Of a stretch of DNA of 64,000 bases, positions 1,027 through 4,747 are shown one piece after another. The notes below the pieces were generated by a model. It was not told where the DNA came from and ran no database searches. It was given only the letters and a program-made list of their open reading frames with translations. This DNA comes from Escherichia coli (GTDB lineage Bacteria; Pseudomonadota; Gammaproteobacteria; Enterobacterales; Enterobacteriaceae). Where the stretch lies: assembly GCF_003334355.1 (NCBI RefSeq), contig NZ_QOWP01000002.1. One strand, 5' to 3'. The first letter of the stretch is position 1, and each line of letters opens with the position of its first letter. The position numbers were made by a program, and so were the translations under genes.

Positions 1027-2265
1027 ATGCCGCAACAAAATTATCTGGATGAACTCACTCCGGCTTTTACGTCTTTACTGGCGATTAAAGAAGCCTCTCG
1101 CTGTTTATTATGTCACGACGCTCCCTGTAGTCAGGCTTGCCCGGCACAGACCGATCCGGGGAAATTTATTCGCTCATTCTACTTTCGTAATTTTAAAGGC
1201 GCTGCCGAGACAATTCGCGAAAATAATGCCCTCGGTGCCGTTTGTGCCAGAGTGTGCCCGACGGAGAAATTATGCCAAAGCGGTTGTACCCGTGCCGGTG
1301 TTGATGCTCCCATTGATATCGGCCGCTTACAGCGTTTTGTTACTGATTTTGAACAACAAACCGGAATGGAAATTTATCAGCCCGGTACTAAAACGCTCGG
1401 CAAAGTCGCGATTATTGGCGCAGGTCCTGCCGGATTGCAGGCCAGTGTGACACTGACAAACCAGGGTTATGACGTCACGATTTATGAGAAAGAAGCGCAC
1501 CCCGGTGGCTGGTTGCGTAACGGTATTCCGCAATTCCGGTTACCGCAATCAGTGCTGGATGCAGAGATCGCCCGTATTGAAAAAATGGGCGTGACCATTA
1601 AGTGCAACAACGAAGTCGGTAACACACTCACCCTTGAGCAGCTGAAAGCAGAAAACCGCGCGGTACTGGTCACCGTGGGGTTATCAAGCGGTTCCGGGCT
1701 ACCGCTGTTTGAGCATAGTGACGTTGAGATTGCCGTCGACTTCTTGCAACGTGCACGACAGGCGCAAGGCGATATCAGCATTCCACAAAGCGCATTAATT
1801 ATCGGCGGCGGTGATGTCGCGATGGACGTAGCCAGCACGCTGAAAGTTCTCGGCTGTCAGGCGGTAACTTGCGTAGCGCGTGAAGAGTTAGATGAGTTTC
1901 CGGCAAGCGAAAAAGAGTTTACCAGCGCCCGGGAGCTGGGCGTTTCGATCATCGATGGATTCACGCCAGTAGCCGTGGAAGGCAATAAAGTCACGTTTAA
2001 GCATGTACGGTTATCGGGCGAACTGACGATGGCGGCAGATAAAATTATTCTCGCCGTCGGTCAGCATGCCAGACTAGATGCCTTTGCGGAGTTAGAGCCG
2101 CAGCGTAACACCATCAAAACACAAAATTACCAGACCCGCGACCCGCAAGTCTTTGCTGCTGGCGATATTGTTGAGGGTGACAAAACCGTGGTCTATGCCG
2201 TGAAAACCGGGAAAGAAGCCGCCGAGGCGATTCATCACTATTTAGAGGGAGCTTGCTCATGTTAA
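1027..2265 (+). CDS. preT: NAD-dependent dihydropyrimidine dehydrogenase subunit PreT
   Basis: 412-aa ORF with Cys clusters (CxxC) and a GAGPAG dinucleotide-binding motif; overlaps the next gene. Confidence 0.9.
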
Positions 2266-3494
2266 CGAAAGATCTTTCGATTACTTTTTGCGGCGTGAAG
2301 TTTCCCAACCCGTTCTGCCTCTCTTCTTCGCCGGTAGGCAACTGCTATGAGATGTGTGCCAAAGCCTACGACACAGGTTGGGGCGGTGTGGTGTTTAAAA
2401 CGATCGGCTTTTTTATCGCCAACGAAGTCTCGCCGCGTTTTGATCATCTGGTGAAAGAAGATACCGGTTTTATCGGCTTCAAAAATATGGAGCAGATTGC
2501 TGAACATCCGTTGGAAGAGAATCTGGCCGCCCTGCGTCGGCTGAAGGAAGATTACCCGGACAAAGTATTGATCGCTTCGATCATGGGGGAAAATGAGCAG
2601 CAATGGGAGGAGCTGGCGCGCCTGGTGCAAGAAGCTGGCGCGGATATGATCGAGTGTAACTTCTCCTGTCCGCAAATGACTTCTCATGCGATGGGTAGCG
2701 ATGTCGGGCAAAACCCGGAGCTGGTAGAAAAATATTGTCGGGCAGTGAAACGGGGTTCCACGCTGCCAATGCTGGCGAAGATGACGCCGAATATCGGTGA
2801 TATGTGCGAAGTGGCGCTGGCGGCGAAGCGCGGCGGCGCAGATGGCATTGCGGCGATTAACACCGTTAAATCCATCACCAATATCGATCTTAATCAGAAA
2901 ATCGGTATGCCGATCGTTAACGGAAAATCGAGTATTTCCGGATATTCCGGTAAAGCGGTAAAACCGATCGCCCTGCGCTTCATTCAGCAAATGCGCACCC
3001 ATCCAGAACTGCGCGATTTCCCAATCAGCGGTATCGGCGGCATTGAAACCTGGGAGGATGCGGCTGAGTTTTTATTGCTCGGCGCAGCAACGTTACAGGT
3101 GACCACCGGCATCATGCAGTACGGGTATCGGATAGTGGAAGATATGGCAAGCGGGTTGTCGCATTATCTCGCCGATCAGGGATTTGATTCGCTGCAGGAG
3201 ATGGTAGGTCTGGCGAATAACAATATTGTCCCGGCGGAAGATTTAGACCGCAGTTATATTGTCTATCCCCGTATCAATCTTGATAAATGTGTTGGCTGTG
3301 GACGCTGTTATATTTCCTGTTACGACGGCGGTCACCAGGCGATGGAATGGAGCGAGAAAACCCGCACACCGCATTGTAATACCGAGAAATGTGTGGGTTG
3401 TCTGCTTTGTGGTCACGTCTGCCCGGTGGGTTGTATTGAGCTCGGGGAAGTGAAGTTTAAGAAAGGCGAGAAAGAACACCCGGTAACGTTGTAA
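2259..3494 (+). CDS. preA: NAD-dependent dihydropyrimidine dehydrogenase subunit PreA (dihydroorotate-dehydrogenase-like with C-terminal ferredoxin domain)
   Basis: ORF track gives 2253..3494; I chose the ATG at 2259 ([10 protein letters not shown]...) to give the 411-aa product; C-terminal CxxCxxC...CP ferredoxin motifs present. Confidence 0.88.
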
Positions 3495-3504
3495 AACCAG
3501 AGAC

Positions 3505-3690
3505 GCATCCGGCATTTGGTTCCTGTCGCCGGATGCGGCTTGAACGCCTTATCCGGCCTACAAAACCATACAAATCAGTATGTTGAGCTTATTGTAGGCC
3601 GGATAAAACGCGCCAGCGTTGCATCCGGCATTTGGCTCCTGTTGCCGGATGCGGCGTGAACGCCTTATCCGGCCTACAAAACCACACAGA
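3505..3690. repeat. Cluster of REP (repetitive extragenic palindromic) elements, BIME-like, between convergent preA and mglC
   Basis: Two near-identical copies of gcatccggcatttgg(t/c)tcctgt(c/t)gccggatgcggc(t/g)tgaacgccttatccggcctacaaaacc at about 3505-3568 and 3621-3685, plus an inverted partial copy (attgtaggccggataa) between them. Confidence 0.9.
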
Positions 3691-3736
3691 TCATGATGTT
3701 ATGTGCGTTTATGACCGAATGCGGACCACATTCACA

Positions 3737-4747
3737 TCATTTCTTACGCGCGTATTTCAGTGAATCCAGCGCTACGGCGAAGATAATAATCGCCCCTTTG
3801 ATGATGTACTGCCAGTATGGGTTTACGCCGATATACGTCAGGCCATAGTTGATGACGGTAAAAATAATTACCCCGGTCACCACGCCAATCACCGTCCCCA
3901 CACCGCCGCTGAACGATACACCGCCTACCACGCACGCCGCGATAGCATCCAGCTCATACATAAAGCCGAGGTTGTTGGTGGCAGAGCCGATACGTCCGGC
4001 TTCTAACATCCCGCCGAAGGCATAGAACACACCAGACAACGCGTAGATCATCAGCAGGTTCAGGCCGACGTTGACACCAGATACTTTTGCCGCTTCCGGG
4101 TTACCGCCAATGGCAAAAATGTTCTTACCGAAGCGGGTTTTGTTCCACAACACCCAGACGAACGCCACCGCAATCAACGCGTAGAAGGTGATGTAAGAGA
4201 GACGGAAACTCCCCAGCGCGACAAAGCCCTGAGCAAAGGTAGAGAAGCCACTGTCAAAACCAGAAATTGGCGACGCCCCGACAAAGTCGTAATAGAGCGA
4301 GTTGATGCCATAGACGATGATCATCGTGCCGAGCGTGGTAATGAACGGCGTCACGTTGAGATAAGCGATAATCAGACCGTTGATCAAACCGATCACCGCA
4401 CCAATGGCACAGACAATCAGAATAACCAGCGCAATCGGCATCGTCGCCATTTCCGGGAACACTTTGTTGGCGTTATCCATGGACTGCAATAATGTCGCAG
4501 CCACCACTGCCGCCAGCCCTACCTGACGACCAGCAGAAAGATCGGTCCCCTGGGTGACAATTAACCCTGCCACACCGAGCGCGATAATAATACGCACCGA
4601 TGACTGGGTGAGAATATTACTTAAGTTCAACAGACTTAAAAATGTTGGGTCCTGGAAAATAATAATCGCCAGCAAAACTAAAAGAACGACGTAAATACCG
4701 CCCTCTTTCAGGTAAGTAAGAAAACTTTTCTTATTTAACGCACTCAT
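3737..4747 (-). CDS. mglC: Galactose/methyl-galactoside ABC transporter permease MglC
   Basis: 336-aa polytopic membrane ORF downstream of mglA. Confidence 0.93.
   Translation of the reverse strand: MSALNKKSFLTYLKEGGIYVVLLVLLAIIIFQDPTFLSLLNLSNILTQSSVRIIIALGVAGLIVTQGTDLSAGRQVGLAAVVAATLLQSMDNANKVFPEMATMPIALVILIVCAIGAVIGLINGLIIAYLNVTPFITTLGTMIIVYGINSLYYDFVGASPISGFDSGFSTFAQGFVALGSFRLSYITFYALIAVAFVWVLWNKTRFGKNIFAIGGNPEAAKVSGVNVGLNLLMIYALSGVFYAFGGMLEAGRIGSATNNLGFMYELDAIAACVVGGVSFSGGVGTVIGVVTGVIIFTVINYGLTYIGVNPYWQYIIKGAIIIFAVALDSLKYARKK

Follow-up and report, generated by a model that had tools for sequence, protein, structure and literature searches.

In the window analyzed here (the whole 64,000-nt stretch of E. 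coli DNA), the preA gene on the plus strand (open reading frame 2253-3494) and the mglC gene on the minus strand (open reading frame 3737-4747) converge, and their stop codons are separated by a gap of 242 bp. The gap is occupied by an array of REPs that together form a BIME; knowledge of REPs and BIMEs goes back to the 1980s. The segment around the gap is 100% identical to E. coli K-12-type genomes, among them many complete ones, e.g., PG20180061 (O16:H48, the K-12 serotype). In MG1655, preA ends at 2236500 and mglC spans 2236743-2237753, and a window coordinate thus equals the MG1655 coordinate minus 2233006. A consensus scan found no promoter in the preA-mglC gap. We also considered a coding reading of the gap, since the open reading frames 3516-3659 (47 aa) and 3632-3763 (43 aa) cross the REPs; neither had an NCBIfam match, the reading was rejected, and both frames are treated here as by-products of REP sequence. 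The features of the gap are listed below, the strand given for a REP being the one that reads GCC...CCTAC.

3492-3494, plus strand: stop codon TAA of preA, the upstream border of the gap.
3497-3514, minus strand: partial Z2-type REP, whose remaining 3' half ends GCATCCGGCA; CCAGAGACGCATCCGGCA matches the same part of the complete Z2 REP (3613-3630) at 15 of 18 positions.
3515-3527, no strand: tail-to-tail linker 1, 13 nt, TTTGGTTCCTGTC, identical to linker 2 at 11 of 13 positions.
3528-3561, plus strand: Y-type REP 1, 34 nt, GCCGGATGCGGCTTGAACGCCTTATCCGGCCTAC, with 1 mismatch to the REP consensus and 32/34 matches to the REP325 Y.
3562-3593, no strand: head-to-head linker 1, 32 nt, L-like, with the IHF-consensus core AATCAGTATGTTG at 3573-3585.
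3594-3629, minus strand: complete Z2-type REP, 36 nt, inverted relative to the Y REPs, with 31/36 matches to the REP325 Z2.
3597-3674, minus strand (the strand of the mglBAC transcript): Y-linker-Z2 pair matched by Rfam RF02564 (naRNA4), 88.3 bits against a gathering score of 59.5, over the full model (1-77).
3631-3643, no strand: tail-to-tail linker 2, TTTGGCTCCTGTT, resembling the REP325 "l" linker (in the Rfam alignment it falls on the linker of the naRNA4 consensus).
3644-3677, plus strand: Y-type REP 2, 34 nt, an exact match to the REP consensus, with 33/34 matches to the REP325 Y.
3678-3709, no strand: head-to-head linker 2, L-like and decayed, identical to linker 1 at 22 of 32 positions; its IHF core is now GATCATGATGTTA, with 2 mismatches.
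3710-3730, no strand: probable decayed remnant of a fourth (Z2) REP, TATGACCGAATGCGGACCACA, the similarity being judged by eye.
3737-3739, minus strand: stop codon of mglC, the downstream border of the gap.

A search with the REP consensus GCCGGATGCGGCGTGAACGCCTTATCCGGCCTAC returned both Y REPs, at 3528-3561 (1 mismatch) and at 3644-3677 (0 mismatches), and gave 0 matches in 100 dinucleotide-preserving shuffles of the window, so the repeats are real and beyond chance. Elsewhere in the 64 kb, the same search returned one lone REP, at 49831-49864, and no other. We observed an 88-nt direct repeat (3497-3584 and 3613-3700) that was 89% identical with a period of 116 bp, as well as dense inverted repeats, and the array amounts to ~2.3 units in the order Z2 tail (minus), Y (plus), Z2 (minus), Y (plus). 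The foot of a REP hairpin carries a conserved GTAG/CTAC tetranucleotide (Ton-Hoang et al., 2012, PMC3333891); ATCCGGCCTAC, which includes it, was found at 3551-3561 (plus), 3594-3604 (minus), and 3667-3677 (plus). All REP copies are extragenic and lie between the preA and mglC stop codons. The initial annotation, which described two direct REP copies with a partial inverted copy between them in a convergent preA/mglC gap of roughly 240 bp, was right about the gap and about the direct copies; the inverted middle copy, however, is a complete 36-nt Z2 REP (3594-3629) that folds on its own. The copy that is partial and inverted lies upstream (3497-3514), and neither this copy nor the decayed continuation at 3678-3730 had been noted. 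The remnant at 3710-3730 sits where three other loci of the comparative set described below (L029, L073, and L107) carry a complete inverted Z2 REP, and its decayed form is also present in E. albertii. Tandem Repeats Finder had no entry for 3400-3800: its threshold is not reached by 2.3 copies with 89% identity and a decayed third one. Matches to the segment were found in 5,426/5,426 E. coli genomes, with a median of 38 places per genome, at most 40 being counted in each.

The array is the catalogued REP156 of E. coli K-12, an already known and ordinary element. REP156 is listed as convergent, between preA and mglC, at MG1655 2236535-2236684 (Harris et al., 2026, supplementary table, bioRxiv 10.64898/2026.03.23.713779), which corresponds to 3529-3678 in the window and reaches from one Y REP to the other. 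The interval 3505-3690 that was annotated initially encloses this span, and the listing bears out the accompanying remark that the cluster is typical of E. coli and not novel. The element is the same, but the catalogued span leaves out 3497-3514 and 3678-3730. No repeat feature is listed at the locus in the RefSeq NC_000913.3 feature table. RF02564, a model defined on the Y-linker-Z2 units of REP325, was the only Rfam family that reached its gathering score at the locus. As defined, naRNA4 is a processed RNA of ~77 nt that binds HU and condenses the nucleoid, although its nucleoid role is disputed (Harris et al., 2026).

Published definitions distinguish three classes of BIME (Chiapello et al., 2005, PMC1187871; Ton-Hoang et al., 2012, PMC3333891). 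A BIME-1 consists of one Y and one Z1 separated by a long L linker, often with an IHF site, and occurs as a single copy; in a BIME-2, Y and Z2 occur in tandem copies, the linker is a short S, and the flanks are of the s, l, or r type; and an atypical BIME is a chimera of BIME-1 and BIME-2 motifs, which is also repeated. In our array, Y and Z REPs alternate in orientation and are joined by recurrent linkers (tail linkers 11/13 and head linkers 22/32 identical), as in a BIME. The Y and Z2 units, their tandem copies (~2.3), and the length polymorphism between isolates are features of a BIME-2, but the head linker has 32 nt, as against 17 nt in REP325, and is not a short S linker. The array also lacks the Z1 and the single copy of a BIME-1: the partner of Y is a Z2 of 36 nt, and the unit is repeated. 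Tandem Y and Z2 with an l-like tail linker and a long L-like head linker, with neither a Z1 nor a single copy, place the array in the atypical class, and REP156 thus fits the published definition of an atypical, chimeric BIME.

The likeness of the head linker to the L motif appears only in direct pairwise alignment and not in BLAST. Against the L linker of the livF Y-L-Z1 BIME-1, which we located in another E. coli genome, the K-12 copy of linker 1 gave 24/32 matches (shuffle p ~0.007); among the other alleles, p was 0.002 at locus L073 and 0.09-0.2 for several others. Linker 1 showed no similarity to the 17-nt REP325 head linker, and linker 2 (3678-3709), when compared alone with the livF L linker, showed no significant similarity. 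Linker 1 was also considered as a dispersed repeat, which was ruled out at the BLAST level: it occurs in one place per genome and is specific to this locus. Its core AATCAGTATGTTG (3573-3585) fits the IHF core WATCARNNNNTTR, a pattern that occurs 13 times in the window versus 4.8 expected, and the IHF match alone is thus weak evidence. Six alleles (K-12, N21, E. albertii, L029, L073, and GPEC606) keep the WATCAR and TTG parts of the core while its four N positions vary; this pattern would fit a constraint imposed by IHF, without proving it, and binding of IHF at the linker core is only suggested by the sequence.

These observations bear on the idea, part of which was raised in the initial annotation (binding of gyrase or IHF), that the array acts mainly at the level of DNA, be it as an IHF site in the L-like linker, as a gyrase or HU site, or as the source of a nucleoid-associated RNA similar to naRNA4 that would take part in organizing the chromosome. 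The position of the IHF-consensus core in the center of the head linker, the WATCAR/TTG kept across the six alleles, the resemblance of that linker to the BIME-1 L motif, and an naRNA4 model score above threshold are all in its favor; furthermore, the whole gap folded as single-stranded DNA gave z = -7.4, which fits a potential to form a cruciform. However, the IHF consensus is weak, as its count in the window indicates, and the linker is wholly absent from ~45% of E. coli genomes. Moreover, REP325/naRNA4 was without measurable nucleoid compaction and REP-REP contacts were not seen in Hi-C (Harris et al., 2026). A mainly DNA-level role is, in our judgment, improbable.

We then turn to the array as RNA. 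The Y1, Z2, and Y2 REPs are each predicted to fold on both strands, at -19.7 to -21.3 kcal/mol and with the internal unpaired position typical of REPs; their lengths (34, 36, and 34 nt) lie within the 30-40 nt of such imperfect palindromes. The predicted energies were -19.7 (plus strand) and -20.1 kcal/mol (minus strand) for the Y REP 1 hairpin, which has an internal mismatch; for the two strands of the other REPs, they were -20.5 and -21.2 kcal/mol for the Z2 REP hairpin (3594-3629) and -21.3 and -20.9 kcal/mol for the Y REP 2 hairpin. The arms of tail-to-tail REPs can also pair across the linkers (-19 to -27.5 kcal/mol), as in a hybrid hairpin at 3504-3537, made of linker 1 and its flanking arms (-21.3 kcal/mol), and in another at 3616-3658, over linker 2 (-27.5 kcal/mol). 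Compared with shuffles, the RNA fold of the whole gap gave z = -6.8 on the plus strand and z = -8.0 on the minus strand.

Two published datasets place features of the transcripts at this locus.

3524, minus strand: Term-seq RNA 3' end of the mglBAC strand, mapped to the window; as read on this strand, the Y1 REP hairpin has its foot 4 nt earlier.
3458-3526 (MG1655 2236464-2236532), plus strand: peak P_N10_2270 of the Rho(+NusG) binding screen, in the preA 3' end/3' UTR, classed as "Proximal", 3 nt from REP156.

On the mgl strand, the Term-seq 3' end was reported at 2236530 (minus), with an average read count of 51513 and an RNA that ends ...GCAUCCGGCGACA (Adams et al., 2021, PMC7815308, supplementary file 1). 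Given its position at 3524 in the window, RNA of the mglBAC strand runs through Y2 and Z2 and has its end immediately beyond the last REP. Among the generic roles that the initial annotation had offered for such clusters, the formation or stabilization of 3' ends is directly supported by this end, 4 nt past the last REP hairpin. The end at 2236530 appears once in the supplementary file, which spans three growth conditions (PMC7815308). A second minus-strand 3' end, at 2236360 (3354 in the window), lies 170 nt beyond the first, inside preA, after a hairpin and a GGGUUUUCUC tract (PMC7815308), indicating that some transcription passes the array and that not all of it is stopped there. For the plus strand, that of preA, supplementary file 1 lists no 3' end within the gap (PMC7815308).

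If the alternative hybrid hairpin (3537 to 3504) were formed, the 3' end at 3524 would fall within its loop; on the mgl strand it is therefore the canonical REP fold that counts in vivo. The hybrid hairpin also enters into another reading, in which a stable hairpin 9-10 nt past the preA stop codon would hold up ribosomes at termination and reduce PreA output. Liang, Rudd, and Deutscher reportedly proposed in 2015 that REPs within 15 nt of stop codons stall ribosomes and cut output. The hybrid hairpin at 3504-3537 (-21.3 kcal/mol) does begin 9-10 nt after the TAA, and in L029 the stop codon itself shares bases with a complete Z2 REP. REP156, however, begins 35 nt after the stop, outside the 15-nt class, and the first complete REP starts 34 nt past the last base of the stop codon; only the non-canonical hybrid hairpin lies at 9-10 nt, where it competes with the Y1 REP fold for one arm (3528-3537), a contest that the REP fold wins in vivo on the opposite strand. 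We therefore regard translational control of preA as very unlikely.

There is no convincing intrinsic terminator in the gap. A consensus scan returned one weak site, inside the Z2 REP, compared with 0.7 expected in shuffles, and this candidate was rejected; no U tract directly follows a REP stem anywhere in the E. coli array. The Rho(+NusG) peak P_N10_2270 near the end of preA has a value of 0.32 (apparently log10 enrichment), barely above the cut-off of 0.3 (Harris et al., 2026, supplementary Table 15). In experiments, REP325 is a partly Rho-dependent terminator and a stabilizer of the upstream mRNA (Harris et al., 2026, bioRxiv 10.64898/2026.03.23.713779). The same study associated REPs between convergent genes with higher expression of both genes and reported that mRNAs with terminal REPs did not, in general, differ in half-life from those lacking them (Harris et al., 2026).

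We reasoned that the array most likely works as RNA, and we consider it probable, with good confidence, that the hairpins of REP156, a chimeric BIME, define and protect the 3' ends of the two convergent mRNAs. Both transcripts would run into the array, where each REP would form, whichever strand is transcribed, a hairpin of about -20 kcal/mol; it is these hairpins, rather than an intrinsic terminator, that would set the 3' ends of the mRNAs and protect them. On the mgl strand, RNA polymerase would halt further downstream, and 3'-to-5' exonucleases would then trim the RNA back to the first stable REP stem; we infer the trimming from the position of the 3' end, 4 nt beyond the last REP hairpin, which is the pattern expected from a downstream stop followed by exonuclease digestion. 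On the preA strand, termination would probably be assisted by Rho near the start of the array. Either process may have consequences for the expression level of the adjoining genes. In origin and variability, the array is in our view a RAYT (TnpA-REP)-associated repeat, which grows and shrinks as its own repeats recombine with one another.

The array varies in length within E. coli. Combining several searches of 5,426 complete genomes, we estimated that the two-unit (242-bp) allele is present in ~52%, a 70-bp hairpin allele in ~45%, and a one-unit allele in 1-2%. The first head linker, whose presence implies the two-unit allele, was found in 2,825 genomes, and a query specific to the 70-bp allele was covered to at least 80% in 2,420. 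When an even sample of 60 genomes was searched with a flanks-only query, gaps of 242, 70, and 126 bp were returned in 31, 27, and 1 of them; the remaining genome, in which a single flank matched, has the short allele with a diverged mglC flank. The 126-bp allele (e.g., in strain HB6) has one unit, which is what recombination between the direct repeats would leave. The 70-bp allele is the array minus the center of its palindrome: it consists of the tail, the linker, and the 5' half of Y fused to the 3' half of Z2 (TGCCGGATGCGGCGCATCCGGCA), and while it has no complete REP, its predicted hairpin has about -26 to -29 kcal/mol. Since ~45% of genomes have only this allele, the full array is dispensable and its hairpins are not uniquely required. 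We also observed a rarer 258-bp allele in GPEC606 and an odd chimeric allele in O157:H7 TR01. Gaps of 242, 126, 70, and 258 bp in E. coli make real the variation in copy number that the initial annotation had proposed to look for across strains, and length polymorphism is a published behavior of composite BIMEs (PMC1187871; PMC3333891). The suggestion that the REPs serve as targets of IS elements found no counterpart at this site: the preA and mglC flanks were at most ~620 bp apart in 5,383/5,426 genomes, the one exception that we examined was due to a diverged mglC flank, and there was no sign of an IS insertion.

To place the locus in a wider context, one genome per species was scanned for the MglC C-terminus, and 120 loci were recovered. 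Among these, preA and mglC are convergent in the Escherichia-labeled loci, the Citrobacter freundii complex, and a single Pseudocitrobacter MAG. The Escherichia gaps carry BIME arrays of differing composition, and all alleles seen keep at least one strong GC-rich hairpin. The E. albertii gap (197 bp) has a decayed distal end in common with K-12, whereas those of the other Escherichia-labeled loci measure 130 bp (Escherichia sp. E1V33), 152 bp (locus L073, with tail, Y, L, and Z2), and 280 bp (locus L029). The last has two complete units, and its first Z2 REP is complete, with a GTAG that supplies the preA stop codon. In Citrobacter, the gap is only 56-61 bp long and holds a bidirectional intrinsic terminator, e.g., AAAAAAGCCCGGTACAG...CTGCACCGGGCTTTTT, with no REP; the terminator hairpin is predicted at about -29 kcal/mol whichever strand is read, in each case with a U tract. 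As the gene pair is the same and the Citrobacter terminator lies in the gap, the Escherichia BIME occupies the position of that terminator.

This variability could also mean that we are dealing with selfish or neutral repeat DNA that has no selected function here and that RAYT activity and repeat recombination seeded and reshaped in a permissive convergent gap, any effects on RNA 3' ends being incidental. We hold this to be possible, though not the likelier account. The spread of gap lengths, both in E. coli (242, 126, 70, and 258 bp) and in four other Escherichia-labeled loci including E. albertii (130, 152, 197, and 280 bp), the split of the species between two common alleles (~52% versus ~45%), and the decay of the distal part of the K-12 array all agree with it, and TnpA-REP cleaves and recombines BIMEs in vitro, the copy number of which varies between strains (Ton-Hoang et al., 2012, PMC3333891). 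On the other hand, all Escherichia alleles seen retain at least one strong hairpin after loss of the Citrobacter-type terminator, and the mapped 3' end uses a REP stem. The neutral account is compatible with our preferred explanation, in which REP hairpins set and protect the 3' ends of the mRNAs; the only point on which the two disagree is whether the array is under selection.

A more far-reaching proposal is that a mobile BIME replaced an ancestral bidirectional preA-mglC terminator in Escherichia, and that the resulting alleles are a natural regulatory polymorphism. We advance it tentatively and consider it rather doubtful. If it were true, the alleles would alter 3'-end formation, read-through into the opposite gene, or the stability of the mglBAC and preTA mRNAs between E. 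coli lineages. As a discovery, the locus carries little weight, and nothing here lies outside known REP biology. What our analysis adds to the catalogue entry is a corrected anatomy, the atypical BIME class together with an naRNA4 match above threshold, the mglBAC 3' end, the contrast with Citrobacter, and the allele frequencies. The locus has modest value as a worked example in which the same gene pair has a terminator in Citrobacter and a variable BIME in Escherichia, with a 3' end on a REP stem. Taken with the two common alleles of very different length, these features would make it a convenient natural test bed for whether REPs act as terminators, as stabilizers, or as neither.

Of the known systems, REP325, a BIME-2 between yjdM and yjdN that we fetched from MG1655, and REP156 both join Y and Z2 tail-to-tail via a similar linker of ~13 nt, both lie in a 3' UTR, and both have the same orientation relative to the transcript of the upstream gene. 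Their Z2 REPs have the same 36-nt length and differ at five positions, four of which make up the compensatory pairs 4/29 and 10/23 while the fifth is in the loop; the arms read GCCGGAT in REP156 and GCCTGAT in REP325. REP325, however, is located between tandem genes and REP156 between convergent ones, and the unit of REP325 repeats every 100 bp, for 5.8 units in all, with a head linker of 17 nt (AAATTCCCGCACCCTCC), whereas that of REP156 repeats every 116 bp, for ~2.3 units, with an L-like head linker of 32 nt. With the BIME-1 (RIP/RIB) downstream of livF, REP156 shares a Y followed by a linker with an AAAA.C.T.CAAAT.CA.TAT.TTG-type start and a central IHF-type core; the livF element has a 30-nt Z1, a 36-nt linker, and a single unit, in contrast to the 36-nt Z2, 32-nt linker, and tandem units of REP156. 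Lastly, the terminator of the Citrobacter freundii complex resembles the E. coli array in its site, in the convergent genes that flank it, and in a strong hairpin usable on both strands, but it is a single hairpin between an A tract and a T tract, whereas the E. coli array is built of REPs with no U tract after their stems.

Three Escherichia-labelled genomes carry variant alleles of the gap between the convergent preA and mglC genes. In the record titled E. coli SCPM-O-B-8794 (L029), the gap holds an array of 280 bp in which two units are complete. Its first Z2 REP extends into the end of preA, whose TAG stop codon is supplied by the conserved GTAG of that REP. The E. coli GPEC606 allele (L128) spans 258 bp in the order Y-L-Z2-L-Z2, where Y and Z2 are REP unit types and L is the L-like linker, and has at its end the fused hairpin of the short (70-bp) allele. 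An array of this kind could therefore have given rise to the short allele, through recombination between the repeated GCATCCGGCATTTGG segments. In E. coli O157:H7 TR01 (L129), the gap is chimeric: the short allele and a duplicated mglC 3' end are followed by a partial long (242-bp) allele. This arrangement may be genuine or may have arisen in the assembly.

We also observed a hairpin followed by GGGUUUUCUC antisense within the preA coding sequence, at window 3354-3400 on the - strand (-15.8 kcal/mol, z = -2.5). Term-seq places an RNA 3' end at MG1655 2236360 (-), which corresponds to window 3354 (Adams et al. 2021, PMC7815308). This hairpin may act as a back-stop terminator for mglBAC transcripts that read through beyond the REP array. 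On the same strand, the Term-seq table lists a 3' end inside mglC at 2237260 (window about 4254), and the same study reports an ORF-internal sRNA candidate, 'mglC int' (Adams et al. 2021, PMC7815308). A candidate RNase III site in mglC (-) at 2237178, window about 4172, was uncleaved in vitro (Gordon et al. 2017).

Elsewhere in the window, two Rfam matches scored above threshold:

49414-49439, + strand, L25 ribosomal-protein leader (46.9 bits)
53155-53228, + strand, tRNA (54.9 bits)

Downstream of the gene next after the L25 leader, an intrinsic-terminator-like hairpin (about 49763-49790) is closely followed by a lone Y-type REP (49831-49864, - strand), whose arms are variant yet still complementary (GCCAGAT...ATCTGGC).

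The Citrobacter loci (L007, L037, L094 and others) have the same convergent preA-mglC pair as E. coli; however, their gap is only 56-61 bp and holds a canonical bidirectional intrinsic terminator without REP.
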